A stretch of 35,945 nt of DNA from an uncultured Chitinophagales bacterium (GCA_964481355.1 CAYZWQ010000005.1:1-35945), one strand, 5' to 3'; positions 5,225 to 27,916 are shown, counted from the first letter of the stretch. Program-made: numbers and translations. Notes: a model not told the origin generated them from the sequence alone.

Positions 5225-5256
5225 TCTGCGTCGTTTCGTTTTCGTTCTGTCTGATT

Positions 5257-5844: not shown

Positions 5845-5993
5845 AGATGTTTGTACTATCTCAATAAGATAGGCATATCGCGGTGATGCTCCAATCGTGG
5901 ATGGACTGCTACGAAAATCGAGGATTGAGCTTCTCGCATCGTTTGACTAAATTGCGCCCACACAGTCGACGCATCCCACCACGAGCAACACCA

Positions 5994-7494: not shown

Positions 7495-7605
7495 GCATGC
7501 ACAAGCATCACATGTTGGTGCGACACGTTTCGGGATGTTAACTTAGGTTCGCTGTGTGCAGCAGAGGCGATCAGACGCCGTCCAGAATTATCATTCCCGC
7601 TCACT

Positions 7606-8538: not shown

Positions 8539-8610
8539 CAAGAACAAGAGCAATGGCAAGAACAAGAGCAATGGCAAGAACAAGAGCAATGGCAAGAACA
8601 AGAGCAAGAG
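8505..8610. repeat. Tandem repeat, 18-bp unit CAAGAGCAATGGCAAGAA, about 4.7 copies plus degenerate CAAGAG hexamers
   Basis: Copies lie at 8527-8544, 8545-8562, 8563-8580 and 8581-8598, with a partial copy at 8599-8610. The first copy carries TGA where the others carry TGG (CAATGACAAG versus CAATGGCAAG). That TGA is the DUF4434 stop codon. Confidence 0.9.
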
Positions 8611-8617
8611 TGCATTG

Positions 8618-9793: not shown

Positions 9794-9800
9794 AGGAATC

Positions 9801-11477
9801 TTAAAACCGCAGGATAGACATCAGGAGATTCTCGTCGACAGTGACGTCCTGGCGTCGGAACCGCGTGGGCAGCAGCGACTGATGCACAACCTCTGGGAGG
9901 CGCTCGGCCATTGTCTGACGAATATCCGATTCAACCTCCCCATATGGTTTGATGCTGTATGACCTGCTGGTGGCCTCGATAAGAGCCCACGCGTTTTCGC
10001 GGGGCCAGGGTCCCGAGAGCATGCGCCCGCCCCTCTCCGACTCAAGTGGAAGGGTATGCTCGGGTAACCCGTTTTTCGATGGATCTGTCCGGGACCCTTC
10101 ACGGTAAGTCCATGTAGTGGCATGTGCATCCAGTGCGATGCCCCAGTCGTTGCTTTGCTGGTAGCTTCGGATCACCTTCCAGGCATCGGAACTGTCGGGA
10201 AACACGTAGTACCTGAATCCGGAGGTGACGGAGGTGACATACCGGGTTTCCTTCCATCGTTCATACCATTCGTTTGAAAGTCGGTCCACATCGATAGTAT
10301 CGGCCACAGACCTCAGTGTGGCAAAGTACAGGGCGGTGTTGGTGGCCATTCTTTCCGCAAGCTGGACCTCAGGGGCCGATGCCAAGCCGGACAACTCAGC
10401 GCGTGCTGCCAGCACGGAGTCGCGGATGGCCAGCTCGAGCGCTCCTCTCAGGTTTGGACCCAGCATTTCGAGGGGAAGATCGGGCAGGCGGTCGATGAGC
10501 TGGCCAAAGGTGAACGGCTTGCCTTCGACCAATGCCAGGGGGGTGTCGCGTGTAAGCGATTCAGGCCTTAATTCGAGGAAACCCTGGTTCATGGCAACCA
10601 AGTCCATGTAGGATGTGGTGCGGGGTACCAACGGCGCAATTTCTGTCCAGGCTTGGCGCAGGCGGTCCATGTAGGTTTCGAGGGAGTGGGATGTCATCAG
10701 GGAGTCGGTGTATGGCACCGTGATTTCCTCGAGCCGACGATGGTACACCTTGAAGGCCAAATTCTCGCGTGCATTGCTGTAGGTGGTGCCGTCGGCATGG
10801 AAGGTTTCCTCGCGTTCCAAAAGGCGGAATATGTGCCAACCGCGCAGTGACTGCACCGGATTGCTGACCTCGCCGGCCACCTTGAGCGACATAGCCGCCG
10901 CTTCGGGCGCCTCGTCCATCATCTCGAAGCCTACCCACCCCATTTTGAAGGAAGAATCGGGCACACCCATCTTTCGCATGCTTTCGGCTGCGAGCGTCTC
11001 GAAGTCTTCGCCAGCCTTGAGCCTGCTTTCATACGAGATGATATCCTCTCGGGTCGGGGCGTAAATCTGCTCCAGGTTCAGCCGCGTGTTCGACCTGCGG
11101 AACGCATCCATGATGTCGGCCTCGTCGGGCATTTGCAACTTCGGTTCGGCAATTTTTTCCAGCCATGACCGGCGCAAGGCGGCCTCGCGCTTGCGTCGGA
11201 TGTCGAGCTGTACCTCACGCAGCGTATCTAGCGACATCCCTCTGCCGATCTCTGCGATGATCTTTCGCTCCAGCATTGCCAGGGCGTAGTCCCTTCGCGA
11301 TTCGAGACCATCACGCATGGGGGCCGCTGAGGCAAAAGCAATGTACTCCTCCTCGAACGATGCAAGGTCCACGGAAACATCCTCCCAATGCGCGACCACG
11401 GGCTGCGGTGGCTCATCGGCTGGCGCGCCGCATGCCACCAAAGTGAATGCCACGAAGAACGGTCCAAGAATTTTCAT
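9801..11477 (-). CDS. Parvulin-type peptidyl-prolyl isomerase lipoprotein (SurA/PpiD-like), 558 aa
   Basis: The lipoprotein signal is FVAFTLVAC. A parvulin-like block reads GWVGFEMMDEAPEAAAMSLKVAGEVSNPVQSLRGWHIFRLLE. Its start overlaps the GH38 stop (ATGA). Confidence 0.7.
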   Translation of the reverse strand: MKILGPFFVAFTLVACGAPADEPPQPVVAHWEDVSVDLASFEEEYIAFASAAPMRDGLESRRDYALAMLERKIIAEIGRGMSLDTLREVQLDIRRKREAALRRSWLEKIAEPKLQMPDEADIMDAFRRSNTRLNLEQIYAPTREDIISYESRLKAGEDFETLAAESMRKMGVPDSSFKMGWVGFEMMDEAPEAAAMSLKVAGEVSNPVQSLRGWHIFRLLEREETFHADGTTYSNARENLAFKVYHRRLEEITVPYTDSLMTSHSLETYMDRLRQAWTEIAPLVPRTTSYMDLVAMNQGFLELRPESLTRDTPLALVEGKPFTFGQLIDRLPDLPLEMLGPNLRGALELAIRDSVLAARAELSGLASAPEVQLAERMATNTALYFATLRSVADTIDVDRLSNEWYERWKETRYVTSVTSGFRYYVFPDSSDAWKVIRSYQQSNDWGIALDAHATTWTYREGSRTDPSKNGLPEHTLPLESERGGRMLSGPWPRENAWALIEATSRSYSIKPYGEVESDIRQTMAERLPEVVHQSLLPTRFRRQDVTVDENLLMSILRF

Positions 11478-14095
11478 CGCACCAACAGGGTCACAATTCG
11501 GTGGGGAAGAACATCCATATGGATGGATCCGTCAACTATGGCAAAGGACCCCGCATCGTCCCAGTTTTCGTGCAGATCGGTGACACATGCCGCCGTTTTC
11601 GTCGTCGGCACTCTCATGATGCATGATTCCGGTTTGTCGCTCGTCGAGTAGATCCTTATTACCCAGCAGGCTTCCGTATCGTGGTGCTTGAGCGCAGACA
11701 GCACAATCGCCGGATTGTCGATGGACAGCAATGATGTTGCCACCGGCAGGACTCCTTTCCCAGTTGCATAAGGCAGCCACGGGAAGACCCGTACCTGCAA
11801 GGGATGGGAGAATTCCCTCAGGGCGCGATGGGCAGTCGGTACGTTTTCAATGGTCGTTCCCATCGCCATTTCAACCGTTATTGGCCTCAGGCACTGGGCT
11901 CCCGGCACGGGGATGGACGGGCCTGCCTGCACGCGCCTGATTCTTCCGCCGCCGGTGCTGAGCATGCCCACCGACCGGTGGAGTGTCACAGCCAGACAGG
12001 AGCCATGAGCCGCATGTTGCACGATTTCGTATTCGTGGTTGCCCCTGCAGGCAAGCCAAAGTGCCGGTGCCAGATATCTGGGCACGATCACGCCGTCGCG
12101 CATGAACTCTGTGCCATAGTCGAGCTCGCCCGGGTACCCGTTCCATCGATCTGCCGACGTTTCGGGGGTCCTTAACGGACCAAAATGGTGATCGGCCAAT
12201 CTGAAATGGGCGTCTGCGATGCTGTAGTTCACATGTTCACCCAACGGGATGAGCAGGCGGAGGCGCCCGTCGGAGGCGTTGTTGGTGTAGTCGATCCGGA
12301 TCGAATGCCCACCTTCGGGAAGCTCATGCACACGCCCATAAACATGCAAATCGACTATGCCCCCTTGCCGGGTTTCGGGAACTTGGAGCGACCATGAGAG
12401 GAGCCCTTTCGACACATCCGGCATCACAGGGGCCTCCCACGACCGGTCGTCGGGATCCGGTCCATAGGAATAGGTGTCGCCAAAATCGGGCCGCCATTCA
12501 AGAATGGCCGAATCCCACAGCGTTTCCAACATCGGGGTATCTGGTGTGCTGCCCCCTCCACCTGTAGCGAGTCCAGTTTGATGCACATGGACCACGGTGT
12601 ATCCCGCCGCAGGTGCCGTCACAAGCATGCGTACATGGTAGCGGCGACCCCATGTTGCGCCCAGAAACTGGTTTTGTACCACCGGGGCCTCCGACGATAC
12701 GACGTTCAGCGGCACCGGTGTGCCCTTTCCATCATGGGCGGCAAGATGTGATTCGGGGGGTGGTGAACCCTCCTCCCCATCCGGGTTGGGATAGAACACT
12801 TGGGTCTCCACCCATGAGGTGACGCTGTACGGGTGCGGGTTGTGCACCAGCAGATAACTTACATCCGCCGCAGGCTGGCCGTCGTTCGATGGATGGTCGA
12901 GCCCCTTGATGAGCGCCTGTTCCATGATTTCGGTAATGAGCACCTCAGCCATGTGGCCTACCTGCTGGAAGCGAACTTCGTTGTCGGAGTGCACGTCGTC
13001 GACACTGCACCCGCAGATGTCGTCGTGGGGGTGGTTCTTCATGAGCTTGCGCCAGATCCTGTCGATCAGAGTGGCGTCGTGGCCAATCAATCCCTGCTCC
13101 ACCGCAGTAAGCACAAACGGCTCCAAAAAGCCCGTGATCAGCGATTCAAGCCGGTGATTCTGCTGCTTGATGTACATACGCGTCGACCATACCCCCTTCA
13201 GAATGGGGTGATGGGCGTTGCCGTCCAAATCGCCGGTAAACTGTGGCCGCATCCTGTCGTAGGCCACTATGTTCCGCGCATAGGCGTCCAAATCGGAATG
13301 TTCAAGTGCGAAGGGCAGTTGGCGGGCGTTGAGTTGCTCGAGAATTTGGGGGAGCTCGGCCTGCTCAGGCATGTGGTCCATTCCATTGAACAGCACCACC
13401 CAAGGTTCCGGCTGGATGCCAGCATAATGCTCGACGGTCTTTTTGATTCGCTCTTCGGCCAAATCAATATCGGGCGACAAGCCTTCGAAACGTCCGTAAA
13501 CGGAGGGGAAACCCAGGGCAGAGGCATTGAAGTATCCGTCGATCATGTAGGTGGCAACCACCTTGCTGCCGTCGGGAGCCACCCAGTCGAAGATGCTTCC
13601 GAGTTCTTCGAAGTCCTTTTCGGGCATGCCCCTCATAAACAGAAAGGTCTCGAGACCCAATTGGCGCAGCACTTGTGGAAGTTGGGCAAAGTGACCGAAC
13701 GGATCCGGCACATACCCCACCCTCAGCAGTCCTCCCCAGGCACGGCCGTCGGCCGCACCGGTCTGCAGGTTCCGGATCACCGACTCGCCGCTCACCAGAA
13801 ACAGATCGGGAAGCACATACCATGGGCCAATCATAAGCCTCTTTTCCTGGATCAGGCGGCGAATACGACCGGCCGCATGTGGACGCACCCCGAGGTAGTC
13901 TTCCAGGAGGATGGTCTGTCCATCGAACATGAACGACTTGTATTCCTTGTCGCCCTCAAGAAGAGCCAAAATTCGGTCGGTCATTCGAACCAGCCGATGC
14001 CTGTAGCTCTCGAACGGCAGATACCACGCCCTGTCCCAATGAGAGTGGGAGACCACCAAACCCTTGATACTGTTGTTTGTTTGCATGAGGCTCAT
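11474..14095 (-). CDS. GH38 family alpha-mannosidase, MngB (mannosylglycerate hydrolase)-like, cytoplasmic
   Basis: The N-terminal GH38 motif is VVSHSHWDRAWYLPFE. GPWYVLPDLFLVSGESVIRNL and KNHPHDDICGCSVDDVH parallel the E. coli MngB sequence as I recall it. There is no signal peptide. Confidence 0.88.
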   Translation of the reverse strand: MSLMQTNNSIKGLVVSHSHWDRAWYLPFESYRHRLVRMTDRILALLEGDKEYKSFMFDGQTILLEDYLGVRPHAAGRIRRLIQEKRLMIGPWYVLPDLFLVSGESVIRNLQTGAADGRAWGGLLRVGYVPDPFGHFAQLPQVLRQLGLETFLFMRGMPEKDFEELGSIFDWVAPDGSKVVATYMIDGYFNASALGFPSVYGRFEGLSPDIDLAEERIKKTVEHYAGIQPEPWVVLFNGMDHMPEQAELPQILEQLNARQLPFALEHSDLDAYARNIVAYDRMRPQFTGDLDGNAHHPILKGVWSTRMYIKQQNHRLESLITGFLEPFVLTAVEQGLIGHDATLIDRIWRKLMKNHPHDDICGCSVDDVHSDNEVRFQQVGHMAEVLITEIMEQALIKGLDHPSNDGQPAADVSYLLVHNPHPYSVTSWVETQVFYPNPDGEEGSPPPESHLAAHDGKGTPVPLNVVSSEAPVVQNQFLGATWGRRYHVRMLVTAPAAGYTVVHVHQTGLATGGGGSTPDTPMLETLWDSAILEWRPDFGDTYSYGPDPDDRSWEAPVMPDVSKGLLSWSLQVPETRQGGIVDLHVYGRVHELPEGGHSIRIDYTNNASDGRLRLLIPLGEHVNYSIADAHFRLADHHFGPLRTPETSADRWNGYPGELDYGTEFMRDGVIVPRYLAPALWLACRGNHEYEIVQHAAHGSCLAVTLHRSVGMLSTGGGRIRRVQAGPSIPVPGAQCLRPITVEMAMGTTIENVPTAHRALREFSHPLQVRVFPWLPYATGKGVLPVATSLLSIDNPAIVLSALKHHDTEACWVIRIYSTSDKPESCIMRVPTTKTAACVTDLHENWDDAGSFAIVDGSIHMDVLPHRIVTLLVR

Positions 14096-14427
14096 CGAAA
14101 TGTGGGCTTAAGATACGCTTAAATTGGGAAGTGCAAGGTTTTTGAAAAGACAATAGACATAATGTGCATAATAGTCTTTGTGCTTATAGATTTACGTACA
14201 CATGTTTGATGTCATAGGGGATAAAAGTGGAGAAGCGGGAATAATATGACCTAAAAAAATAAAAAAGCGCTTTTGAAAAAAAGTTTCAGAAGCATTGATT
14301 TGTAACTTTGCAAACAATATAATGTGCCTATAGAAATCCACAACAGACATAATGTACACATTACGTGTAACTTGTGCATTTTCGAAACACAATCATTGTT
14401 GCATCGACGACCATAAGACCGAGGGCC
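14096..14427. promoter_or_regulatory. AT-rich divergent control region with repeated motifs
   Basis: Direct repeats CAATAGACATAATGTGCATA (14151-14170) and CAACAGACATAATGTACACA (14341-14360) match at 17/20. A third ATAATGTGC lies at 14319-14327. GTGCYTATAGA occurs twice, at 14180 and 14324. TACGTACACATGT is at 14193-14205, and TACAC-N5-GTGTA at 14354-14368. TAACTTTG (14303-14310) fits the Bacteroidetes -7 consensus TAnnTTTG. Confidence 0.5.
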
Positions 14428-17115
14428 ATGGCATCATTTAGCATACAGTGCAATTCACGACCATTTTTGGGGCGAATCATTTCGGGGTGTTGCATGGTGT
14501 TGCTGGCCCTGGTGGTCACCTCGTCCGCATGGGCTCAAACCACGGGCAAAATTGCCGGCAAGATCACCGATGCACAGGGGTTGCCATTGCCTGGAGCCAA
14601 CGTCATTATCGAGGGCACCACGCGTGGCGGCTCGTCGGACGTGAAGGGCGACTACTTTATCCTGAACGTTTCGCCGGGCAGCTACACGCTGATCTTTTCG
14701 ATCATCGGCTATGAGACGGTGCGGGTGACGGACGTACGGGTTCAGGTCGACCGTACAACCACCATCGACATGGTCATGAAGGAGGCGAACCTCATGTTCG
14801 ACGAGGTCGTGGTGTCGGCCGAGGCCAGCATGATCACACGCGATCAAACATCGGCCTCTGCAAAGATCACTGGAGACGAGCTTAGGGTCTTGCCGACCGA
14901 CAGCTTCCTCAAGACGGTGACCCTGCAGGCGGGTGTCAACCGTGGTGCTGGCGGAACGATACACATACGTGGGGGCAGGTCGACCGAGATCAAATACTAC
15001 GTGGATGGTGTCGCCGTCACCAACCCGTTCAGCAACGGTCTTGCCGTGCCGGTCCAGAACGAGTCGATCCAAGAAATTGAAGTCATCAGCGGCACGTTCA
15101 ACGCAGAATATGGGCAGGCAAACAGCGGCATCATCAACATCGTGACCAAAGACGGCGGCGACAAACTGGCGGCCACGTTCAATGGCAGCGTCGGTGGATA
15201 CCTTACTGGCCGCAACGACATCTTCTACGACATCGAGAATGCGAAGCCGTATGGCCAGCAGGTGTACGAGAGCACGCTCTCCGGACCCATTGTGAAGGAG
15301 AAGCTGACGTTCTTCACCAATTTCAGGTACACCGACTCGGATGGATGGCTTTTCGGGCGGCGCATCTTCACGCCCTCCGACAGTTCGGTATTCTCGTCCA
15401 ACGATCCAAGTTCATGGATCATCAGGTCGTCGGGCGATTCGTCCGTCGTGCCCATGAACGTTTCCACCAGCAACTCCGCATTGGCGAAGTTGACTTGGAA
15501 ACTCTCGAACAACGTAAAGTTGGGCTACTCTGCCACCAGGTCGTACGGTAAGGCACAGGGTTACAGCCACCTCTACCGTTACAACCCCGATTATCGTCCT
15601 ACCTCTCGCAGTGAGTCGTACAACCACCTGTTGACGCTCAACCATGTCTTGAACAACCGCACCTTTTACAACCTCAGGCTAACGGCTTATACGACCAATG
15701 CCCGTCAGTATGTGTACGAAGATCCGTTCGATGAGCGGTATCGGTTCATTGAGGGACGCAACCAGCAGCCGAGCGACGTGTTCAACACAGGTGGCGTGAA
15801 CAACTTCCATTTCCGTCGTAAAAGCACCACATGGGCTGCGAGATTCGACATTTCAAGGCAGATGAACACGTACCACCTGGTAAAAACCGGCGTAGAATTC
15901 AGGTACAACGACTTATTTCAAAGGGAATTTTTCATCCAAGCCAGACGGCAGACGGGGCTGACCCGCGAGATCCCACCGATTGAGTCAAGGTTTCACAACA
16001 CCTTCACGAAGAAGCCGTACGAATTTGCCGCCTTCCTGCAGGACAAAATCGAGGTCCGCGACCTCATCATCAATGTGGGCGTGCGCTTCGATTATTTCAA
16101 TGCAAACAGCGACGTTCCCACCGATCTGCGCGACCCTGGCAACACACGGGGCGCACCGTATGACGAGGCCTATAAACCCGCCTCTGCTAAATATCAGCTC
16201 AGTCCCCGCATAGGCTTTGCGTTCCCGATTTCGGCGTCGGGGGTGATCCATGCTTCCTATGGTCAATTTTTCCAGATACCGGAATTCAGCCGTCTGTATG
16301 AAAACCCTGAATTCGAGGTTACGGCCAGCAACTTCAGCCAGTACATCGGCAACGCCGATTTGGAGGCGCAACGGTCAACCACCTATGAGATCGGCCTTCA
16401 GCAGGAGTTGGGGATGTACACGGCCATTGACCTTACGGCCTACTACCGAGACATACGGAATCTGCTGGGCACCGGCCTGTATGCCTCGCGAACAGGTGGC
16501 GACAGTTGGGGGCGCTATGAAAACGCTGATTTTGGAAGCGTACGTGGCATAAGCTTGGCTTGGAGCATACGTACAGATGTGGGGGTGCGCGGCAGCATCA
16601 ACTACACCTATCAGTCTGCCAGAGGTAACGGAAGCGATCCGAAGCAGGCCTTCTTCGATGCCCAGTCGAACAACGAGGCGGCCAGGATACTTATCCCTCT
16701 CGCGTGGGACCAAAGGCACAACGTGGGCGGAAGCGTCACATACCAAAAAGGACTGTTTAACGCGGGATTGATCGGAAGCTACGGAACGGGATACCCATTC
16801 ACACCAAGCGACCTGCAGCGGCAGCCACTCGCCGAACTGAGGAACGAGGCACGCTTTGAGCCGGAATTTGTCGTTGACCTCCGTCTTTCCCGGAACTTCA
16901 AGCTGAACGGCATCACCGGTCAGGTGTACATGTTCGGTGAAAACATCCTCGACTTCTACCGCCAGGACCGTCGGCCTCGCCTGTTCATACGCGACATCGA
17001 GGCCCACAACCTGAGCGGCAAGAACATCATCAACAGCCTTGAAGAGTATCGCAGCAATCCGGCCGTACACCCGAGTCCCCGACTCGTCCGTCTAGGTTTC
17101 CAGATTTTGATTTGA
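14428..17115 (+). CDS. TonB-dependent outer-membrane receptor with an N-terminal CarboxypepD_reg-like domain (non-SusC context)
   Basis: The signal peptide is ...LALVVTSSAWAQ. The CarboxypepD_reg block is GKIAGKITDAQGLPLPGANVIIEGTTRGGSSDVKGDYFILNVSPGSYTLIFSIIGYE. DEVVVSA is TonB-box-like. A plug and a long beta-barrel follow. The tracked ORF opens at GTG 14374, and the ATG at 14428 is preferred. Confidence 0.9.
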   Translation: MASFSIQCNSRPFLGRIISGCCMVLLALVVTSSAWAQTTGKIAGKITDAQGLPLPGANVIIEGTTRGGSSDVKGDYFILNVSPGSYTLIFSIIGYETVRVTDVRVQVDRTTTIDMVMKEANLMFDEVVVSAEASMITRDQTSASAKITGDELRVLPTDSFLKTVTLQAGVNRGAGGTIHIRGGRSTEIKYYVDGVAVTNPFSNGLAVPVQNESIQEIEVISGTFNAEYGQANSGIINIVTKDGGDKLAATFNGSVGGYLTGRNDIFYDIENAKPYGQQVYESTLSGPIVKEKLTFFTNFRYTDSDGWLFGRRIFTPSDSSVFSSNDPSSWIIRSSGDSSVVPMNVSTSNSALAKLTWKLSNNVKLGYSATRSYGKAQGYSHLYRYNPDYRPTSRSESYNHLLTLNHVLNNRTFYNLRLTAYTTNARQYVYEDPFDERYRFIEGRNQQPSDVFNTGGVNNFHFRRKSTTWAARFDISRQMNTYHLVKTGVEFRYNDLFQREFFIQARRQTGLTREIPPIESRFHNTFTKKPYEFAAFLQDKIEVRDLIINVGVRFDYFNANSDVPTDLRDPGNTRGAPYDEAYKPASAKYQLSPRIGFAFPISASGVIHASYGQFFQIPEFSRLYENPEFEVTASNFSQYIGNADLEAQRSTTYEIGLQQELGMYTAIDLTAYYRDIRNLLGTGLYASRTGGDSWGRYENADFGSVRGISLAWSIRTDVGVRGSINYTYQSARGNGSDPKQAFFDAQSNNEAARILIPLAWDQRHNVGGSVTYQKGLFNAGLIGSYGTGYPFTPSDLQRQPLAELRNEARFEPEFVVDLRLSRNFKLNGITGQVYMFGENILDFYRQDRRPRLFIRDIEAHNLSGKNIINSLEEYRSNPAVHPSPRLVRLGFQILI

Positions 17116-17122
17116 TTTCAGC

Positions 17123-20100
17123 ATGGCAAACAGACCATTTACATTTATCACCCGCCTTGTTGCAGTTTCCGTAGTCTGTGTGATTGCTGCGGCAGGTCAG
17201 ACGCTGGCTCAAAACAACGATTCCGGTGTCTTCATCGATCCAGAACGTGGAACCAGGTCGTGGAGGACCAGTTTCAACACCAACGGAAACCAAGTCGAGT
17301 CGATCGTCACGAACTGGGGCACGGTGGGTCGGGGTAATTTCAGCATCAACCAGGCCGGCGTGTGGCCCAAGGGTACGGGTCACGGGCACTTGCATGAGAT
17401 GACCGGGCTTGTAGCCACGCGGGTGGTCGACCGGGACGGGAAAACCATCGAAATGGTGAGCGATGGTTACGGAGACAGTGCCCAACAGGATATTGACCCT
17501 GTGACCAATGTGGAGTGGAAGTTTCAGCCGCTGCCGGAGTATCTGAACAGGAATGTGGAGAATCCGGAAATCGCCAACTCACTCAACCAAGAGTCGTGGC
17601 CACGCAGATGGCCTGACCGGCCTTCTCAATGGGACGGCCAATGGAACGGATATTTTGGGCTCAATCAGTTCAATGCTGACCAGGAGCTTTTCTATGTGAT
17701 GGACGATCTGTCGAACCGGGAGTACAAGTTTGGTCCCTTGGCCAACGATCCTCAGGCTGGCGGTTTGGGTCTTCAGATTCGGGTGAGGATCTTCCAGTGG
17801 AGCCAAGCGCTTGCGAAGGATATTTTGTTCATGCAGTACGAAGTCTCCAACATCGGCGATATCGTCTACAACAATACAAACGCAAACAACCCGATCTATT
17901 TCGGAGGGTACACCGATGTGAACCCAGCCGGATCGGGTTCTACAGACGATGCCGCCGATTTTGAACTATCGCAGGATATCGTGTTTGGTTGGGCGTTATC
18001 CGGTGTCGGCACCTGGGGGCAGTTCAGGGACATTCCACCCGGCTATATCGGATGGAAGTTTCTTGAAAGTCCCGGCATATCCGACGACTTCATCGACAAC
18101 GACAATGACGGCATCATCGACGAAAGCCGTGACAATCCTGCCGGGCAATTGATTTTTGGCCCGGTCGGACGGTATGGTGATCCCAAGGAACACTGGTCGG
18201 GCGATGAGGACGGCGACTGGAATGCCTTGATCGACGATGTCGGAACTGACGGTATTGGACCCGGTTTCGAGGGCTATCCAGGCCCAGATCCCGATGGCAC
18301 CGAGGGAAATGGTAGTCCCGATCAGGGCGAGCCCAACTTTGGGCGTCTTGACAACGACGAGTCGGACCAGGTGGGGCTGACCTCTTTCAATGCGCCCCTG
18401 TTCGGATCGGTCAGCATTCACAACGAGGCTGCCATGTGGCCGAAGATGCAACCGGGCTTCTTTGACATCCCGGCCCAGGGGGTCAACCAGATCTGGATAT
18501 TTGCATCGGGTCCGTTTCGACTCCGACCGGACCGAACGGAACGTTTTTCCACGTGTTTCGTCTTTGGGGCCAACCGGCAGGCGCTGTTTCGCTCTGCCCA
18601 GGTGGCTCAACGAATTTACGATTCCGACTACCGCTTTGCACGTCCACCTCGTCAGCCGAAACTGAAAGCCATCGCCGGCGATGGTAAGGTCACCCTCATA
18701 TGGGATAATTTGGCAGAGTTCTCCCGGGATCCGATCTATGGTTTCGATTTTGAGGGCTACCGCATCATCAAATCGACAGATCCCCAGTTCAACGATGCCC
18801 AAGACATCACCGACTCGTTCGGAAACTCGGTCTATAAGAGGTCAATTGCACAGTTCGACAAGGTAAACGGCCTCAAAGGGTATCATGAGCTGCAATTTGG
18901 CGAGGAAATCGGACTACCGAACGGTGTGCACTATTTCATGGGAGACGACACGGGGTTACAGCATTCGTACATCGACACCGACGTCATCAACGGAAGGGTC
19001 TACTACTACGCCGTACTTTCGTACGATGCAGGCTATGTAGATTCCTATTTTGACCTGGGCATTTCTGATTCCCCCCTTCTTTTCCCGATCTCGCCGTCAG
19101 AATCGCCCGGCAGCATTACGGTCACTCAAGGGGTTGTGACCCGCTACGACGTGAACACGGTGTCGGCGCGACCCAACACACAGCCTGCCGACGAAATTTT
19201 GGGGGTGTTGGCCGTGGATGCTCAAAATCGGGTGCCAAGGTCGAAAGGCGATGCCACCTCGGTGCTTCAGGCGTTTCCAATCAACGAAAGGGCGTTCCTC
19301 GAAACGGAGTACACGGTGACCTTCGAGCAGGAGCCGGTGGCCACCAGCGTGGAATACGGCACAAAGACGTACACGGTTACTGACAAAGCCGGTCGGGCTG
19401 TCGTGAATAAAGCACCGGTTCCCAAAAATCCAGACGGAACCTATGTGACCAATTGGACGGAAGAAATTTTTGACGAGGGATTCTTGCTGGTGTTCGACAA
19501 CACATTTCCGACACAGACCTACACACAGCAGAATTCAAGATTTTCACCTGAAAGCAAGACGAACCTGAGATCCGCTGTCCAAGCACCGCTGCCAACCACG
19601 TTGATTCCCACGCCGCCGCTTTGGCCCATCAATGTAGTCATCGATTTCGGAGGGGAGGGGGCCGTGCTCGACACTGCCTTCATCAATAACACCGGCCTTT
19701 TCACGCGTCCAGTTAATTTCAGGCTCTATGAAGAGGGCACCAACGCGAACATCAACTTCATATTAAACGAGCTTCAGCAGTCGACGAATGGACGCATCGA
19801 CATCGGGGAGAGCATCGATCTCGTTTTCAGGAACCGTCCAAACGATTTCCGCTATACGCTGAGTTGGAAAATTACCTTCAATCCTCCAATAGATGCAAAC
19901 GGCAATGAGCTCCCGGTCGCCCAAGCCGTGTTGCCGCAAGCCGGAGACCGGTTTGTGCTTCGAACCCAGAAGCCGTTTGGCGAGCGCGACGAGTATGTGC
20001 TCCGCGTCACAGCGACCAAAATTGATGAAGATGCCGACGAGTCGCTGCTCGACGAGATTACGGTGGTTCCCAACCCATACATCGCGGCAACCGTTACCGA

Positions 20101-20347
20101 GTCCCGCCCATTTTTGTCGGGAAGAGGTGAACGTAGGATTGAAATCCGCAAACTTCCGGCAACCTGCCGGGTCCGCATCTTCTCGGCCAGCGGGGTCTTC
20201 CTTAGGGAGTTGGAACCTTCGAACGGAGTGGCTGTCTGGGACTTGAAAACCAAGGAAGGCCTCGAGGTTTCCTTTGGTCTCTACTTCTTCCATGTCGATG
20301 CGCCAGGCATCGGTGAGAAGATTGGGAAATTCGCCATTATCAACTGA
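17123..20347 (+). CDS. Large secreted hypothetical protein (1074 aa) with an acidic DxDxDG Ca-binding cluster, an Fn3-like segment and a T9SS-CTD-like / FlgD-Ig-like tail
   Basis: The signal peptide is VVCVIAAAGQTLAQ. The acidic region reads DDFIDNDNDGIIDESRDNP...GDEDGDWNALIDDVGTDG...DPDGTEGNGSPDQGEPNFGRLDNDESDQ. The Fn3-like segment reads KVTLIWDN...GYRIIKS...YYYAVLSYD. The C-terminal 96 aa (20057-20344) read VVPNPY...CRVRIFSASGVFLRELE...WDLKTKEGLEVSFGLYFFHVDA...GKFAIIN. Confidence 0.8.
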   Translation: MANRPFTFITRLVAVSVVCVIAAAGQTLAQNNDSGVFIDPERGTRSWRTSFNTNGNQVESIVTNWGTVGRGNFSINQAGVWPKGTGHGHLHEMTGLVATRVVDRDGKTIEMVSDGYGDSAQQDIDPVTNVEWKFQPLPEYLNRNVENPEIANSLNQESWPRRWPDRPSQWDGQWNGYFGLNQFNADQELFYVMDDLSNREYKFGPLANDPQAGGLGLQIRVRIFQWSQALAKDILFMQYEVSNIGDIVYNNTNANNPIYFGGYTDVNPAGSGSTDDAADFELSQDIVFGWALSGVGTWGQFRDIPPGYIGWKFLESPGISDDFIDNDNDGIIDESRDNPAGQLIFGPVGRYGDPKEHWSGDEDGDWNALIDDVGTDGIGPGFEGYPGPDPDGTEGNGSPDQGEPNFGRLDNDESDQVGLTSFNAPLFGSVSIHNEAAMWPKMQPGFFDIPAQGVNQIWIFASGPFRLRPDRTERFSTCFVFGANRQALFRSAQVAQRIYDSDYRFARPPRQPKLKAIAGDGKVTLIWDNLAEFSRDPIYGFDFEGYRIIKSTDPQFNDAQDITDSFGNSVYKRSIAQFDKVNGLKGYHELQFGEEIGLPNGVHYFMGDDTGLQHSYIDTDVINGRVYYYAVLSYDAGYVDSYFDLGISDSPLLFPISPSESPGSITVTQGVVTRYDVNTVSARPNTQPADEILGVLAVDAQNRVPRSKGDATSVLQAFPINERAFLETEYTVTFEQEPVATSVEYGTKTYTVTDKAGRAVVNKAPVPKNPDGTYVTNWTEEIFDEGFLLVFDNTFPTQTYTQQNSRFSPESKTNLRSAVQAPLPTTLIPTPPLWPINVVIDFGGEGAVLDTAFINNTGLFTRPVNFRLYEEGTNANINFILNELQQSTNGRIDIGESIDLVFRNRPNDFRYTLSWKITFNPPIDANGNELPVAQAVLPQAGDRFVLRTQKPFGERDEYVLRVTATKIDEDADESLLDEITVVPNPYIAATVTESRPFLSGRGERRIEIRKLPATCRVRIFSASGVFLRELEPSNGVAVWDLKTKEGLEVSFGLYFFHVDAPGIGEKIGKFAIIN

Positions 20348-21375
20348 TGCACACGGGAACAGCGATTATGAAACAGCATCTGATAATAGCCCTCATCGTT
20401 GGATTGATCATCGCCACACCGGCGTTTGCACAAAAGAAGGTCGGTACCACTGCCGTCTCATTTCTGGAGATCGCTGTCGGTGCAAGGGGCATGGCCATGG
20501 GTGAGGCGCATGTCGCCGCAAGCAACGATGTGACCTCCTTGTATTGGAATCCGGCAGGGGTGACGCAGATAGGCGGAAGCCAGGCGTCCTTCCAGTACAC
20601 CGATTGGATCATCGACACCAGGCTGAACTATGCCGCCGCCATATTCCAGGTTCGTCCCAACATGTACATCGGCGCCCATTTCAACTCCTTCGACTCGGGT
20701 ACCATGAACGTCACCGACGTGCTCTTTCCGGACGGAACGGGCGAGGTGTTTCGAGTGCAGGATGTCTCCTTGGGCTTGAGTTATGCCCAACAGCTCACCG
20801 AGTTTTTCTCGATGGGTGGAAATGTGAAGTTCATTCAATCGACCATCTGGAGGATGAAGGCGTCAGCCATGGCCGTCGATATGGGTTTTCAGTACCAAAC
20901 ACCGTTCAAGAACATGAATTTAGGCTTCAGTATCTCCAATTTCGGATCCGAGATGAAGCTTCAGGGCGACAACACCGCAATACGCGTCGACCTTGACCCC
21001 CGTGCGAGCGGCAACAACGACGGTATTTTGGGGAACCTATCGCTGCGGTCGTGGGATTTGCCACTCATCTTCCGCATTGGTCTTGGCTACAAAATCATCG
21101 ACAGGCCCAATCAGTCACTTCTCGTCACATCCGACGCCGTATACCCAAACAACAACAACCCCTACATCAACTCCGGACTCGAGTACGGATACCGTAACAC
21201 GTTCTTCCTAAGGGGGGGATATGCAAATGCCTTTTTATCTGGAACGGAGGGCCTTGGGCACATTCGCCTTGGTTTTGGGGTGAAGTTGGCCGACCGTATT
21301 GCAGCCGACTATGCATACAGCGACCGTGGTATTCTTGGTGGCATAAGTACATTGGGTGCAACCGTAAAATTTTGA
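20347..21375 (+). CDS. PorV/PorQ-family outer-membrane beta-barrel protein
   Basis: VGTTAVSFLEIAVGARGMAMGEAHVAASNDVTSLYWNPAGV matches the PorV/LptO N-terminal signature (FL.I....R..GMG.A.VA...D....YWNPA). Alternating beta-strand patterns run to the C-terminus, which ends in F. The ATG overlaps the upstream stop by 1 nt. An alternative ATG at 20368 gives MKQHLIIALIV...AFAQ. Confidence 0.8.
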   Translation: MHTGTAIMKQHLIIALIVGLIIATPAFAQKKVGTTAVSFLEIAVGARGMAMGEAHVAASNDVTSLYWNPAGVTQIGGSQASFQYTDWIIDTRLNYAAAIFQVRPNMYIGAHFNSFDSGTMNVTDVLFPDGTGEVFRVQDVSLGLSYAQQLTEFFSMGGNVKFIQSTIWRMKASAMAVDMGFQYQTPFKNMNLGFSISNFGSEMKLQGDNTAIRVDLDPRASGNNDGILGNLSLRSWDLPLIFRIGLGYKIIDRPNQSLLVTSDAVYPNNNNPYINSGLEYGYRNTFFLRGGYANAFLSGTEGLGHIRLGFGVKLADRIAADYAYSDRGILGGISTLGATVKF

Positions 21376-21379: not shown

Positions 21380-22498
21380 ATGATTGATCTCACCGACACA
21401 TCGGAGAAATTATATGAACAGGTCGCAAATGACCTGAAGGTGCGCATCAAAAAGATGGAATTTGGGCCACATGGACGCATACCGAACTTTTTGAGCTTGG
21501 CACGCGACTATCAGGTGAGTATGTCGACCATCAAGAAGGCCATGCAAATCCTCAACGATGAACACGTAGTCATCAGCCGTGTCGGAAAAGGTACATTCGC
21601 TAGTTCGAATGCCGGCAGACAACGAGGACCATTGTCCACATCGATCGACATGACCTCCACCAAGATAGGACTGCTTATCCGAGATGTTGAGGGCCCCTAT
21701 TTTTCCGGGATTTATAAGGGGTTGGCAGAGGCGGCCGACAGGAAAAAGCGACAACTGCTGCTTACGGTGTCGCGCGACATCTACCAGCAGGAAGACGCCC
21801 TTCTTCGTTTGATGGTCGATCATAACGCCGCAGGCTTGTTGGTCACTACCCGCAGGAAATCATTGTTTGGGATTTCGATCTACGACAAGCTGGTCGAAGC
21901 GAAATACCCGATGGTGTTCATGCACGAAGTGTACGACTCGCCGGCAATGATCGTCGATGTCGACAATTACCGGGGCGGTTGGCTCGTGGGCGAGCACCTG
22001 GTACGCCGCGGCACTCACCGGTTTGCGATCGTTGTGGGCGAAATTGGTTTCAAGACCGATGATTTGCGGCTTCAGGGATTCATGGACGCTCTGCAAGATG
22101 CCGGTGTAAACACCTCGTCGGATGTCTTTGTGTTTCGGTTCAGTTTCGGCAGCGAGGCAACCGCCTTCGATGAAGGTTACAAGATTGGACAGAGCATCTG
22201 TTTTAAAGACATAGGTATTGATGGTGTCTTTCTGTTCAACGACATGGTGGCTATGGGCTTTCAGAAGGCCATCTTGGAGCGGGGCTATCGGATACCCCAA
22301 GACATTGCATGCGTCGGCTTCGACAATATCGAGCGATGCTCGGAAGCCCGGGTTCCACTGACAACCGTCAACGTGCCACGCCAAGAATTGGGTGAGCTCG
22401 CCATCAACAAAATATTGGAGGCCGTGGAGCAGCGCGACAACAAACCCGGAGAGCGCTTTTTGATTCAACCAGAACTTGTTATACGAGATTCAGCATGA
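21380..22498 (+). CDS. Transcriptional regulator with AraR-type architecture (GntR-family wHTH N-domain plus LacI/PBP1-type sugar-binding C-domain)
   Basis: The N-terminus LYEQVANDLKVRIKKMEFGPHGRIPNFLSLARDYQVSMSTIKKAMQILNDEHVVISRVGKGTFA is GntR-type. The C-terminal 270 aa follow a LacI-family effector-domain pattern (KIGLLIRDVEGPYFSGIYKG..., VGFDNIERCSEARVPLTTV). Confidence 0.85.
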   Translation: MIDLTDTSEKLYEQVANDLKVRIKKMEFGPHGRIPNFLSLARDYQVSMSTIKKAMQILNDEHVVISRVGKGTFASSNAGRQRGPLSTSIDMTSTKIGLLIRDVEGPYFSGIYKGLAEAADRKKRQLLLTVSRDIYQQEDALLRLMVDHNAAGLLVTTRRKSLFGISIYDKLVEAKYPMVFMHEVYDSPAMIVDVDNYRGGWLVGEHLVRRGTHRFAIVVGEIGFKTDDLRLQGFMDALQDAGVNTSSDVFVFRFSFGSEATAFDEGYKIGQSICFKDIGIDGVFLFNDMVAMGFQKAILERGYRIPQDIACVGFDNIERCSEARVPLTTVNVPRQELGELAINKILEAVEQRDNKPGERFLIQPELVIRDSA

Positions 22499-24072
22499 AG
22501 AAGTTCATCGCAGCCATCATCATTCCGTTTGTGCTTATAACGGCTTGCTCAAAACCGGATGTACCAACCTCATCGGCTGTGATCGGCGACGAAGTTCGAG
22601 GTGTTTGGATCACAAATATCGACAGCGATGTCATGTTCAGCAAGAAAGCAACGGCCGAGGCAATCGATTACTTGGCCGACAGAGGCTTCAACGTTGTTTT
22701 TCCGGTAGTCTGGAATGACGGATACACGCTGTATCCAAGCCAGGTGATGGAACAGTATTTTGGTGAAGCTTACAAGATCGACACGCTGTTCCTGGCACAG
22801 GGCCGAGACCCGCTGGCAGAACTGATCGTTGAGGCACACCGTCGTGGACTCGAGGTTATCCCCTGGTTCGAGTTTGGTTTCTCAACCTCCATCAACCAAA
22901 AGGGTGGGCACATTCTGAGCAGATATCCGCAATGGGCTGCGCGTGCCGCCGACGGATCACTGCTGACGAAGAACGGATTCGAGTGGATGAACGCCTTCGA
23001 TCCAGAAGTGCAGTCGTTCATCACCGAGTTGGTGATGGAGGTGCCCAAGCGCTATGATGTCGATGGGATACAGGGTGACGACCGCCTCCCCTCGTTGCCT
23101 GCCGAGGGTGGCTACGACCCACTCACAAAGAGCATGTACAAGGCCGAGACGGGCAACGATGTGCCTGATAATCCACTCGAGCCGCAGTTTTTGCAGTGGA
23201 AGGCCGACAAGCTGAGCGCCTATGGTAAGTACCTCTTCGACACGGTGAAAGCATACGATCCCGAACTGATCGTGTCGTATTCTCCGATCATCTACCCGTG
23301 GGGACTCAACAATTATCTCCAAGATTGGCCGGCATGGATCAAAGGCGGTTTCGTCGATCTTTTGGTTCCGCAGGCATACCGTTACGACACCACCCAGTAC
23401 AAGGAGACGGTGGACGAGATCATGACGTATGCCAACCAGCCCGAGGCAAAACCCTACACGTTGGCCATGGGCATATTGACCAAGTCAGGACCCCGGTATA
23501 ACGGACCACAGTATGTAAAGACGGCCATTAACTACAATCGGTCGAAAGGAGCAAAGGGGGAAGTCTATTTCTTCTACGAGGGCATGAATCATAACAATGA
23601 ACACCTCGCCGACACCCTGCACAATACGTTCTATGCCGGTCCTGCAACGCTTCCCTACCGCAATGGAACCGTGAGGCGGAAGCCCGCCCACATCATGCAC
23701 GAAGAAGAGGCTGAGCCCACGGGTGATTGGACGACTGTTGCTTCCGAGCAAGCTTTCGACGGCAAATTTCTTGAAGGCACCGGGTCGGTACAATACACCT
23801 TCAAAGAGCCCGAATCAGCCCGTTATGAGGTCTACATCCATATACCGTACGGTTATTCGCTGGAGGCAGTCCCTGAGGTCGAGATCAAATTCGGTAACCA
23901 TACCGACGGAGAGTTTTTCAATCGCGAGCTGTCGGGATCAATGGAAGGTTGGGTGTTGGCCGGCGAGGTGATCGCATCGAAGGGTGACTGGGTGCATGTC
24001 GTCGTATCCTCGAACGCACAGATTGCCGTCGACGGAGTGATGTTCCTGAACAAACTGAACAAAAAGAATTGA
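22495..24072 (+). CDS. GHL10 (glycosyl hydrolase-like 10 / YngK, PF02638-type) lipoprotein with a C-terminal beta-sandwich
   Basis: The lipobox is VLITAC. The GHL10-like core reads VRGVWITNIDSDVMFSKKATAEAIDYLADRGFNVVFPVVWNDGYTLYPS...EVIPWFEFGFS...DGIQGDDRLP. The tail of about 120 aa resembles golvesin/Xly-type carbohydrate-binding domains. The start overlaps the regulator stop (ATGA). Confidence 0.8.
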   Translation: MKKFIAAIIIPFVLITACSKPDVPTSSAVIGDEVRGVWITNIDSDVMFSKKATAEAIDYLADRGFNVVFPVVWNDGYTLYPSQVMEQYFGEAYKIDTLFLAQGRDPLAELIVEAHRRGLEVIPWFEFGFSTSINQKGGHILSRYPQWAARAADGSLLTKNGFEWMNAFDPEVQSFITELVMEVPKRYDVDGIQGDDRLPSLPAEGGYDPLTKSMYKAETGNDVPDNPLEPQFLQWKADKLSAYGKYLFDTVKAYDPELIVSYSPIIYPWGLNNYLQDWPAWIKGGFVDLLVPQAYRYDTTQYKETVDEIMTYANQPEAKPYTLAMGILTKSGPRYNGPQYVKTAINYNRSKGAKGEVYFFYEGMNHNNEHLADTLHNTFYAGPATLPYRNGTVRRKPAHIMHEEEAEPTGDWTTVASEQAFDGKFLEGTGSVQYTFKEPESARYEVYIHIPYGYSLEAVPEVEIKFGNHTDGEFFNRELSGSMEGWVLAGEVIASKGDWVHVVVSSNAQIAVDGVMFLNKLNKKN

Positions 24073-26039
24073 ATTCCTCAATAATCCGATATCGAATAGC
24101 TTTGTTGATGGTGTTGGCCGGTGTGCTTAGTGGCATGCAGCCAGCGCTTGCGCAGACCTTACCCTACAAGCAGGAGGTGCGCGGCGTTTGGATCACCAAC
24201 GTTGACAGCGACGTGCTCAGTTCAAGGGAAAAGATTGCCGAAGCGATGGATTACCTGGCATCCCGTGGGTTCAACGTGGTTTTCCCTGTCGTTTGGAACA
24301 AAGGATTCACCCTTTACCCAAGCCGGACCATGCGCAGGGAGTTTGGATCACAGCTCGACCAATACAATTTGTCGGATCTTCCGTTTAAGTCGCAGAACAG
24401 GGATCCTCTCAAAGAATTGATTGTGGAAGCGCACCGCAACGGGATGGAGGTCATCCCGTGGTTTGAATTCGGATTCTCGACAAGCTATTCACAGAATGGC
24501 GGACACATCATCAACAACAAACCCCATTGGAAAGCCATCGACATCAATGGCAACCTGGTGGTGAAGAATGGTTTCGATTGGATGGATGCCCTCAACCCCG
24601 AGGTGCAGGACTTCATGCTCAACTTGGTACGCGAGGTGATCGAAGATTACGATGTGGATGGAGTTCAAGGTGACGACCGCCTCCCTGCAATGCCGGCCGA
24701 GGGCGGTTACAGCGACCAAAACATCGAAATGTATCGCGCAGAGCACAATGGCCAAAATCCGCCGGCACAGTTCAATAATTCAGCCTTCATGAAATGGAAG
24801 GCCGACAAGTTGACCCACTTTGGAGGCAGGCTGTACCGGATGGTGAAGCAGCACGATCCGAGGCTGATCGTTTCGATGTCGCCGAGCATCTATCCGTTCA
24901 GCTACTCGCAATACTTGCAGGACTGGCCGCGCTGGATGGATTCAAGCTACGTGGACATGCTTCATCCGCAGGCCTATCGATACGACATCAACAGCTATCG
25001 CAACATCATCGTCGAGCTGGTGGGGAGTGGTACAGGATCATCCGGATACGTCAAGCCGGCCGACCGCACGAAGCTCTCGCCGGGCATTTTGATCAAAGCG
25101 GGAAACCAGTTCAATCGGACGACCTACATCCGCCAGGCTGTCGCGTTCAACCGGTCCCGTGGCGTAAACGGGGAGGTGTTTTTCTTCTACGAGGGATTGC
25201 GAGAGAAAAACGAATTTGCCGCCGATACCCTATACAAATATTTCTATAACGTTCCGGCTCTGCTTCCCTACCGTCAAGGGAAAATCAGGCGACCCAAGGG
25301 GATCATCGTTGACGAGGACACCCCCGGAGCGGTGGCTACCGGTGCATGGACACCCACAACGGAGTACAAGGGTCACAAAGATGGCGCGCTCCGAACACCC
25401 GAGGGATCGGGCTCGACCATCGAGTGGTCGGCCAACGTCCCTTGGTCGGCGTGGTACGATGTGTATGTCTTTAACCCGATATCCAATTTCGAGTCGACCC
25501 AGGCGGCTTCCTATTCAACATGGGGCGATCTTGGTCGCAAGGACACTCTCATCAATCAGCGCAGTACTGGTCGGGGCTGGACAAAAATCGGGACACAGTT
25601 CATCACCGCCGGCAACCGCAAGTTTGCGGAGCTGAGATCGGGCTCCACCAACAATGGGAGGCACGTTTTCGCCGATGCTGCAATGCTCATCTTGAACAGG
25701 AAATTGAGCCCTGATATCGAGCTCGACGGCATGCTTTTGTCATCTGGGGAGGAATCGACCCCCGATCTGCCTGCAGGCCCAATGTTGCACCAGAATTTCC
25801 CAAATCCGTTCAATCCAACCACGACCATCCAGTTTTCCTTGCCACAACGCGACACAGTCAGCCTGGATATTCTGGATGTGGCGGGCAAGGTGGTACGCAC
25901 CCTCGTTATGGATCGCGAGTACCAGCCGGGCATCTATGATGTTGTGTTTGACGGATCCATGCTGGCCTCGGGAATCTATCTGATGCGCCTGCAGACATCA
26001 TTCGGATCAGTGACCAAAAAACTCACCTTGCTAAAATAA
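24069..26039 (+). CDS. GHL10 paralog carrying a canonical T9SS C-terminal sorting domain
   Basis: It has a signal peptide (LAGVLSGMQPALAQ) and the same GHL10 core (VRGVWITNVDSDVLSSREKIAEAMDYLASRGFNVVFPVVWNKGFTLYPS, EVIPWFEFGFS, DGVQGDDRLP). A beta-sandwich follows (INQRSTGRGWTKIGT...HVFADAAMLI). The CTD spans 25791-26036 (NFPNPFNPTTTIQFSLP...GIYLMRLQT...KKLTLLK). The start is a TTG that overlaps the upstream stop. Confidence 0.85.
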   Translation: MNSSIIRYRIALLMVLAGVLSGMQPALAQTLPYKQEVRGVWITNVDSDVLSSREKIAEAMDYLASRGFNVVFPVVWNKGFTLYPSRTMRREFGSQLDQYNLSDLPFKSQNRDPLKELIVEAHRNGMEVIPWFEFGFSTSYSQNGGHIINNKPHWKAIDINGNLVVKNGFDWMDALNPEVQDFMLNLVREVIEDYDVDGVQGDDRLPAMPAEGGYSDQNIEMYRAEHNGQNPPAQFNNSAFMKWKADKLTHFGGRLYRMVKQHDPRLIVSMSPSIYPFSYSQYLQDWPRWMDSSYVDMLHPQAYRYDINSYRNIIVELVGSGTGSSGYVKPADRTKLSPGILIKAGNQFNRTTYIRQAVAFNRSRGVNGEVFFFYEGLREKNEFAADTLYKYFYNVPALLPYRQGKIRRPKGIIVDEDTPGAVATGAWTPTTEYKGHKDGALRTPEGSGSTIEWSANVPWSAWYDVYVFNPISNFESTQAASYSTWGDLGRKDTLINQRSTGRGWTKIGTQFITAGNRKFAELRSGSTNNGRHVFADAAMLILNRKLSPDIELDGMLLSSGEESTPDLPAGPMLHQNFPNPFNPTTTIQFSLPQRDTVSLDILDVAGKVVRTLVMDREYQPGIYDVVFDGSMLASGIYLMRLQTSFGSVTKKLTLLK

Positions 26040-26043
26040 ACCG

Positions 26044-27852: not shown

Positions 27853-27916
27853 CTCACCTAAACTCACACAGAAGATCACACATACAGCTACCATCAATCA
27901 ACATAATCTCAAACCT

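Follow-up and report, generated by a model that had tools for sequence, protein, structure and literature searches.

Two kinds of described system come closest to the locus reported here, a run of three genes (the trio) in a 35,945-nt stretch of DNA from an uncultured Chitinophagales bacterium (GCA_964481355.1, CAYZWQ010000005.1:1-35945), the whole of which we call the window. The first kind is the glycan locus centered on a TonB-dependent receptor. In SusC/SusD (RagA/RagB) systems and utilisomes, a TonB transporter with a carboxypeptidase-regulatory-like extension is followed by the gene for a large, non-barrel, surface-type protein, SusD, and the pair stands at the head of an operon, the polysaccharide utilization locus (PUL), with glycoside hydrolases (GHs), proteins that carry binding modules, a regulator of the sugar type and a transporter of the inner membrane. 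The SusD-less TonB carbohydrate utilization (CUT) loci of Xanthomonas and aquatic Proteobacteria likewise hold a TonB receptor, carbohydrate-active enzymes (CAZymes), a regulator and an inner-membrane transporter, with no SusD (PMC1790865). The second kind is a barrel of the PorV family with a cognate protein that ends in a type IX secretion system (T9SS) C-terminal domain (CTD). In the attachment complex of Porphyromonas gingivalis, PorQ-PorZ (and PorV-PorU) join such a barrel to one CTD protein whose tail is retained and not cleaved, as for PorZ on PorQ (PMC10202324). Large surface proteins and dedicated barrels also stand side by side where type-B CTD cargo is paired with PorP/SprF barrels, as in SprB-SprF of Flavobacterium johnsoniae; PorP/SprF proteins serve type-B cargo, and such a barrel is thought to handle only the cargo adjacent to it (PMC10202324). 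The trio combines these two kinds, a TonB-receptor-centered glycan locus and a cognate PorV-family barrel with its CTD protein.

The three open reading frames (ORFs) lie head to tail on the plus strand and encode a TonB-dependent receptor, a 1074-aa protein (the giant protein) and a 342-aa barrel. Seven nucleotides separate the first two, and the second and third share one nucleotide in the junction TGATG, which reproduces exactly the coordinates of the first-pass annotation of this DNA. Alternative starts are present for the receptor (GTG at 14374) and for the barrel (MKQHL at 20368, which would make a 20-nt gap). The reading that we favor, and to which we give about an even chance, is that the trio heads a PUL-like operon and makes up a single module for nutrient capture at the outer membrane, in which the giant protein would be exported by T9SS, held by its uncleaved tail on its own barrel, and serve the receptor. 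The features on which this reading is built are as follows.

14428-17115, plus strand: TonB-dependent receptor, 895 aa, assigned by Pfam domains.
17123-20347, plus strand: the giant protein, 1074 aa, uncharacterized, with a signal-peptidase-I leader (LA|Q) and no lipobox, mostly beta.
17213-18658, plus strand: conserved N-terminal domain of the giant protein (N-domain), residues 31-512, delimited by column conservation.
18074-18385, plus strand: acidic insert within the N-domain, residues 318-421, 26% Asp + Glu.
18659-19192, plus strand: conserved Fn3-like beta-sandwich region, residues 513-690, from strand pattern and fold matches.
19193-20017, plus strand: variable beta-sandwich region, residues 691-965, with the lowest conservation.
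20045-20344, plus strand: divergent type-A T9SS CTD, residues 975-1074, from profile comparisons and predicted strands.
20347-21375, plus strand: PorV/PorQ-family (FadL-like) outer-membrane barrel, 342 aa, with a signal peptide (AFA|Q), matched by NF033709.

The receptor has the layout of SusC: a signal peptide (AWA|Q), a CarboxypepD_reg-like N-terminal extension, a candidate TonB box after it (DEVVVSA, picked by eye), a plug and a barrel. All three Pfam domains were matched (CarbopepD_reg_2/CarboxypepD_reg at E 1e-19; Plug, PF07715, 37 bits against a cut-off of 23.9; TonB_dep_Rec_b-barrel, PF00593, 97 bits against 27), which places the receptor by sequence among the TonB-dependent receptors with a CarboxypepD_reg N-domain, as had been claimed for it. 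It is not a true SusC/RagA. Unlike SusC, it scores only 86.5 bits against the SusC/RagA model TIGR04056, whose cut-off is 368 bits, with only the N-terminal 393 of the 981 model positions aligned, and no gene for a SusD/RagB-family lipoprotein is adjacent to it. Nor was any SusD/RagB found among the scanned window ORFs of at least 200 aa (all of the non-overlapping ones and some overlapping ones), so that the absence of a SusD-like gene, one of the points made in the first-pass annotation, stands over that range.

No Pfam family was matched over the 1074 aa of the giant protein. Its full-length homologs number more than 1315 (clusters at 90% identity) and are named either 'hypothetical' or 'Fn3 domain-containing' (fibronectin type III; a name given to some by NCBI), and a profile search of solved structures with the family returned only chance EF-hand matches (E > 0.2), with no solved relative by sequence. 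An AlphaFold2 model built with 72 homologs (predicted local distance difference test (pLDDT) 85.8; predicted template modeling score (pTM) 0.71) was almost wholly beta, with helix limited to about 57 of 1044 residues, or ~5%. The possibility that this ORF hides a SusD/RagB protein was rejected on its low helix content, its signal-peptidase-I site (LA|Q) and the lack of a SusD Pfam match: in contrast to the giant protein, SusD is an alpha-helical tetratricopeptide-repeat (TPR) lipoprotein of about 550 aa. A lipid anchor is also unlikely from the sequence, because a signal-peptidase-I leader is present and a lipobox is absent; lipobox-like motifs occur in 2 of 80 homologs. In all three trio proteins, cleavage at the predicted signal-peptidase-I site (AWA|Q, LA|Q, AFA|Q) would leave glutamine as the first residue, and the A-Q pair is nearly invariant across the giant-protein family. 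This resembles the 'Q-rule' (N-terminal glutamine after signal peptidase) described for Bacteroidetes, which, according to PMC5837995, is not valid for the whole Fibrobacteres-Chlorobi-Bacteroidetes (FCB) group.

Conservation divides the giant protein into three parts: residues 31-690 are conserved, residues 691-965 are variable, and the tail is again conserved. The N-domain has seven invariant residues (H87, H89, E188, D194, D195, R222 and W226), and its profile retrieved 376 clusters (50% identity) at E <= 1e-30 among 1.84 billion representatives; among the matches listed, nearly all have the domain at the N terminus of proteins of roughly 1000-1300 aa. The structure models hint at a GH94/GH15-type beta-supersandwich, a tentative reading that falls short of a fold assignment: enzymes of this kind top the fold searches with both the full-length model and a stand-alone model of the N-domain, at marginal scores. 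The acidic insert, with twice the Asp + Glu content of the whole protein (13%), holds the protein's most conserved stretch (column conservation 0.89 at residues 391-420; pLDDT of the insert 65-79) and, judging from its motifs, likely binds calcium. The insert had been described as a dense DxDxDG acidic cluster; the acidic cluster is there, while 'dense' slightly overstates a region with one strict DxDxDG motif and otherwise degenerate ones. Likewise, the Fn3-like segment proposed earlier holds by the structure model, with fibronectin type III arrays among the top fold matches, but not by Pfam. In the region that follows, conservation falls to 0.36-0.48 and the mean p-distance is 0.73, and we consider this variable region a candidate for the specificity-determining part of the protein.

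The tail carries VVPNPY (motif B), a low-confidence insertion of about 20 residues, motifs C to E and a terminal GKFAIIN. Its best curated match was the NCBIfam model of the PorZ C-terminus, which aligns the last 70 residues (E 9e-6). A canonical-CTD profile, built only from the 92 canonical CTDs found in related loci, matched 35 of 80 family tails directly (E 2e-6 to 5e-4), and an hhalign comparison of the family tails with those 92 CTDs gave a probability of 95.2% (E 2.8e-8) over 64 columns spanning motifs C to E. In the structure model, seven strands are predicted between residues 980 and 1072; seven is also the number in known type-A CTDs (PMC10202324). On this sequence and model evidence the tail is a divergent type-A CTD. 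It is also the most conserved part of the protein, with a mean p-distance of 0.43 against 0.73 in the adjoining variable region. The tail of one close homolog (P0026) has a precomputed match to PF13585 (CHU_C, a type-B CTD), and the family tail may sit between the type-A and type-B classes.

The third protein scores as a PorV-type barrel, in keeping with its earlier annotation, by two models: NF033709 (PorV/PorQ family; 205.3 bits where the cut-off is 90, with positions 1-325 of the 326 in the model aligned) and Pfam PorV (PF19572; 44.6 bits against 27). It stays below the equivalog cut-offs for PorV (NF033710; 97.9 against 250), PorQ (NF033711; 109.5 against 220) and PorV2 (75.7 against 325), and the PorP/SprF family gave no match in the Pfam scan. 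The only relative with a solved structure found by sequence is PorV of F. johnsoniae (6h3i_F; E 2e-11), and where its 2416 homologs are named, the name is 'PorV/PorQ family protein'. By sequence the barrel is thus a paralog within the PorV/PorQ family, an ortholog of neither PorV nor PorQ.

To place the trio in a wider context, related loci were scanned in one genome per species, which yielded at least 581 loci, 80 of which were fetched. The counts that follow rest on tblastn, by which several barrel genes absent from ORF calls are present. The order receptor, giant protein, barrel was kept on the same strand in 79 of the 80, wherever the contig reaches, so the synteny of the three families extends beyond this genome to several phyla. 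Spacing in these loci is as tight as in the window, with median gaps of 9 and 7 nt and many 4-nt overlaps. The hosts are Balneolales, Rhodothermales/Rubricoccaceae, Calditrichota (Calditrichia), Ignavibacteriota, Fidelibacterota/Neomarinimicrobiota (Marinimicrobia-type), KSB1 and unclassified FCB metagenome-assembled genomes (MAGs); three are identifiable isolates or named species, namely Gracilimonas tropica DSM 19535, Ignavibacterium album and Rosettibacter primus. Cultured carriers include G. tropica DSM 19535 (WP_157470693.1) and Caldithrix abyssi DSM 13497 (Calab_0650). The very strong conserved synteny strengthens the idea that the giant protein may be anchored by the barrel at the receptor, or presented there, in place of the SusD lid, which was the suggestion of the first-pass annotation and which we consider plausible. 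A barrel dedicated to one CTD protein, which that annotation saw in a PorV paralog hard-wired to one cargo, is not unprecedented, given PorQ-PorZ and PorP/SprF (PMC10202324).

The module also occurs more than once per genome. Two diverged modules lie on one chromosome (L003, ~60% identity to the window; L061, ~36%), and two loci hold complete modules in tandem (L036, 9-11187; L038, 13-11106), in which the second receptor gene comes immediately after the first giant-protein and barrel pair and leads the second pair, stop codons overlapping start codons. Duplication thus takes in the entire unit, and for that reason the barrel is not a single housekeeping PorV; this candidate identity was rejected on the equivalog scores given above and on the several copies per genome, some of them tandem. 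As for the host of the window, G. tropica DSM 19535 is the nearest cultured match, at 62-64% identity across the trio, and five MAGs also labeled 'uncultured Chitinophagales bacterium' (L001, L006, L008, L012 and L022) carry modules 54-87% identical to that of the window. Because the nearest cultured match is a Balneolales species, the Chitinophagales labels of these five look wrong, and the window looks Balneolales-like by sequence, its own label being doubtful.

The neighbors of the trio in related loci point to glycan use. Downstream, canonical T9SS cargo with Por_Secre_tail was found in 19 of 74 cases, and the other recurring families include Laminin_G_3, LTD, GH3, GH16, Malectin, GHL10 and components of ATP-binding cassette (ABC) sugar uptake. 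Upstream neighbors are often proteins with carbohydrate-binding modules (CBM9 or CBM4_9) and a canonical CTD, LacI regulators, and sodium:solute symporter family (SSF) transporters. With GH3, GH16, CBM9, CBM4_9, LacI, SSF and ABC sugar transporters, these loci are PULs in the broad sense, as is the window, where a GH38 gene, two GHL10 genes, a GntR/LacI regulator and an SSF symporter surround the receptor. The canonical CTD cargo in the same operons is evidence only that the hosts encode T9SS substrates. Because the neighboring enzymes vary between loci (GH3/GH16, GHL10/GH38, sulfatase) while the trio stays constant, the pattern is what one would expect of a general-purpose front end for capture and import whose enzymes can be exchanged.

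In the mechanism that we propose, the receptor would act as a TonB-energized importer of SusC-like layout with no SusD partner. The giant protein would cross the inner membrane via Sec and then the outer membrane via T9SS by means of its variant CTD. Its tail would be neither cut off nor lipid-linked; it would stay on the co-encoded PorV/PorQ-family barrel and so hold the giant protein at the surface. There, the N-terminal supersandwich and acidic domain would engage the receptor, and the variable beta-sandwich domains would bind polymer or oligosaccharide released by neighboring T9SS-secreted enzymes and feed it to the receptor. We infer four elements of this scheme: dependence on T9SS, a tail that stays on the barrel, physical contact with the receptor and ligand binding. 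A precedent for such an arrangement is BamG, a FadL-like barrel docked on BamA, by which a surface protein, BamH, is held (PMC12578637).

Around the trio, the window holds the following features.

11474-14095, minus strand: GH38-type alpha-mannosidase-like gene, divergent from the receptor.
14150-14363, no strand: divergent promoter region that separates the GH38 and receptor genes, with repeats and a sigma-70-like site.
21380-22498, plus strand: hybrid regulator with a GntR helix-turn-helix (HTH) and a LacI-type sugar-binding part, which follows the trio only in Balneolales relatives.
22495-30160, plus strand: remainder of the putative operon, described by family matches of its ORFs.
22495-24072, plus strand: GHL10 protein.
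24069-26039, plus strand: protein with GHL10, Golvesin_C and Por_Secre_tail.
26044-27852, plus strand: sodium:solute symporter.
27845-30160, plus strand: uncharacterized T9SS cargo of 771 aa, canonical Por_Secre_tail as its one recognizable family, encoded by the operon's final gene, next to the terminator.
30172-30206, plus strand: strong intrinsic-terminator-like hairpin (16-bp stem, then a T run) that closes the putative operon.

The genes downstream of the trio have almost zero spacing and end at the strong terminator hairpin, and by this arrangement the trio is the head of a putative glycan-type operon of about 16 kb. The divergent promoter region upstream of the receptor is 330 nt long and AT-rich, with a sigma-70-like site at 14295-14323. 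It contains two 24-nt direct repeats at 14150-14173 and 14340-14363 (ACAAYAGACATAATGTRCA...; copies ACAATAGACATAATGTGCATAATA and ACAACAGACATAATGTACACATTA), 190 nt apart, and a third, partial copy at 14319-14330; these repeats may be operators, perhaps for the GntR/LacI hybrid regulator. Beyond the GH38 gene lie a SurA-like peptidyl-prolyl isomerase (PPIase) gene, a GlcNAc-2-epimerase-like gene and a DUF4434 gene. SurA-like PPIase (Rotamase) genes are found near the module both in the window (9801-11477, minus strand) and in one Calditrichia locus (L016, 400-2094), and Rotamase families occur among the downstream neighbors of related loci in 3 of 74 cases; the product may be a periplasmic chaperone tied to module loci. 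Further away, a 275-aa ORF at 5059-5886 (plus strand) matches no Pfam family, shares part of its length with a TPR-repeat gene read in the other direction (4610-5224, minus strand), and is a candidate gene only.

The alternative to a capture module that survives best, though we judge it unlikely, is co-expression without a stable complex. The giant protein would then be an ordinary T9SS cargo, whether a binding protein that is released or linked to anionic lipopolysaccharide (A-LPS) or a new enzyme, with the barrel as its dedicated export shuttle and the receptor importing the products. Ordinary T9SS cargo is indeed plentiful in the loci, the tail is homologous to type-A CTDs, which are cleavable, and the invariant H87, H89, E188, D194 and D195 go together with weak fold matches of the N-domain to the supersandwich domains of carbohydrate-active enzymes. 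However, the ordinary cargo of the same loci (the 92 canonical CTDs) has no private barrel, and the tail of the giant protein is conserved above the rest across phyla, as would be expected of a lasting interface more than of a signal that is discarded. The N-domain, moreover, stays conserved while neighboring enzymes vary, which argues against a substrate-specific enzyme.

It is very improbable that the barrel instead passes some small substrate, hydrophobic or amphipathic, as a FadL-type channel independent of the giant protein, and that the trio is an operon of unrelated uptake proteins. Weak Toluene_X/FadL matches (E 1.6e-4) and the name 'long-subunit fatty acid transport protein', given to several barrel homologs by the Joint Genome Institute (JGI), would favor such a channel, but the PorV/PorQ model scores 205 bits where the FadL model scores 20.7, the barrel always lies directly 3' of the protein with the CTD-like tail, its start codon often overlapping the stop codon before it, and the surroundings speak of glycan use rather than lipid use. 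We give less credence still to a receptor that exports, like Oar for PopC in Myxococcus, and that aids secretion or assembly of the giant protein. Oar-type receptors have the same CarboxypepD_reg-plug-barrel layout as the receptor of the trio. A TonB-dependent transporter needed for protein secretion is documented (PMC6434023), but the giant protein already has a T9SS-type signal and a PorV-type partner, and the operons encode what import predicts, namely LacI regulators, sugar transporters of the inner membrane and glycosidases of the periplasm or cytoplasm. Least probable of all is a structural or envelope-biogenesis unit like BamG and BamH of the Bacteroidota BAM complex (the machinery for beta-barrel assembly), for which there is the precedent of a FadL-like barrel holding a surface protein beside a large barrel and the SurA-like PPIase gene nearby in the window and some other loci, but which is at odds with several diverged copies per genome (tandem ones included), with the embedding of the module in regulated CAZyme/transporter operons, and with a partner barrel that is a TonB-dependent receptor and not BamA.

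Several observations weigh against reading the trio as a single capture module. The one exception to the synteny among the fetched loci, in a Calditrichia MAG (L016; CAVXXB010000008.1; region 2217-11629), is a gene for the giant protein without an adjacent receptor or barrel. The flanking Laminin_G_3, Reg_prop and DUF362 proteins all carry a canonical T9SS tail, and still further upstream (3-383) the locus has the 3' end of a gene like porV. A SusC/SusD pair upstream of the giant gene was considered and rejected, as both ORFs there encode T9SS cargo with Por_Secre_tail, one with Laminin_G_3 and the other with Reg_prop. The variant T9SS-CTD/FlgD-Ig-like tail of the first-pass annotation, while upheld by profile-profile homology and the predicted seven-strand sandwich, fails on the Pfam models named for it: Por_Secre_tail and FlgD_ig (PF18962/TIGR04183 class) gave no match to the giant protein at E <= 0.1. 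The canonical-CTD profile, too, had no direct match to the window's own tail. The fold matches of the N-domain (9ju0, 8bou and 6ggy) are marginal (E about 1e-3; TM 0.15-0.28), the N-domain modeled alone from a 12-sequence sub-alignment was poor (pLDDT 48.9), and its invariant His, Asp and Glu could be an enzyme active site instead of a docking surface. Co-divergence, in contrast, lends the module reading a little support: mirror-tree distances among the parts of the trio all correlate (r 0.78-0.95), with receptor distances best following the N-domain (partial r 0.63) and the barrel giving a residual partial r of 0.24 with the tail and -0.01 with the Fn3 part. This signal is, however, confounded by shared phylogeny and is suggestive only, and the barrel's partial r with the variable region (0.27) is as high as that with the tail.

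Taken further, the capture-module reading would make the trio a third architecture for outer-membrane glycan import in several Bacteroidota-related phyla, a proposal that is possible but that we regard as doubtful. A SusC-like transporter would be capped or fed by a T9SS-displayed, beta-rich protein of ~1000 residues, tethered non-covalently by its uncleaved variant CTD to a PorV/PorQ-type barrel of its own, which would dock next to the transporter. Such a complex would be neither the SusCD 'pedal bin' nor a bare TonB receptor; it would be lipoprotein-independent and may predate or parallel SusD. In contrast to SusC/SusD, the trio adds an obligatory third component, the PorV/PorQ-type barrel, and its surface display would rely on T9SS and not on lipoprotein export. 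It is an alternative to SusCD and not a substitute forced by the absence of SusD, since SusD occurs in these phyla: one SusCDE operon is reported in Melioribacter roseus (PMC3534657). The hosts of CUT loci are not known to have a T9SS, nor those loci a conserved giant surface partner or a PorV-type barrel.

Among barrel-CTD pairs, PorQ-PorZ is the nearest in that the PorZ C-terminus is the best curated match of the tail and the PorZ structure (5m11) came second in the fold search with the giant protein. PorZ, however, delivers A-LPS, has two propellers and occurs in a single copy per genome, and its gene is not known to be adjacent to porQ. Unlike PorQ-PorZ, the pair in the trio is adjacent, multi-copy, set in nutrient operons and tied to a TonB-dependent receptor, and its barrel is not PorQ (110 bits against the PorQ equivalog cut-off of 220). 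The trio differs from SprB-SprF in that its barrel is of the PorV/PorQ family, its tail is type-A-like, and its function would be linked to uptake rather than to gliding adhesins. The first-pass annotation knew of no biochemical account of such a module; full-text literature searches gave no description of the trio, and the genome papers of Caldithrix abyssi and M. roseus do not mention it.

If the trio is a capture module of this kind, T9SS would be more than a secretion route, since some of the machinery of nutrient import would be assembled through it, and the PorV family would have diversified into private anchors of uptake complexes. It would also explain glycan capture by lineages that are abundant in the environment (Balneolales, Rhodothermales, Ignavibacteriota, Calditrichota, Marinimicrobia-type and KSB1); SusCD loci appear few in at least part of these (one reported in M. 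roseus; PMC3534657). As a genomic marker, the trio would flag PUL-like loci missed by PUL predictors based on SusC/SusD, and it would give a function to a large, unannotated family of giant proteins (376 clusters at 50% identity; more than 1315 at 90%).

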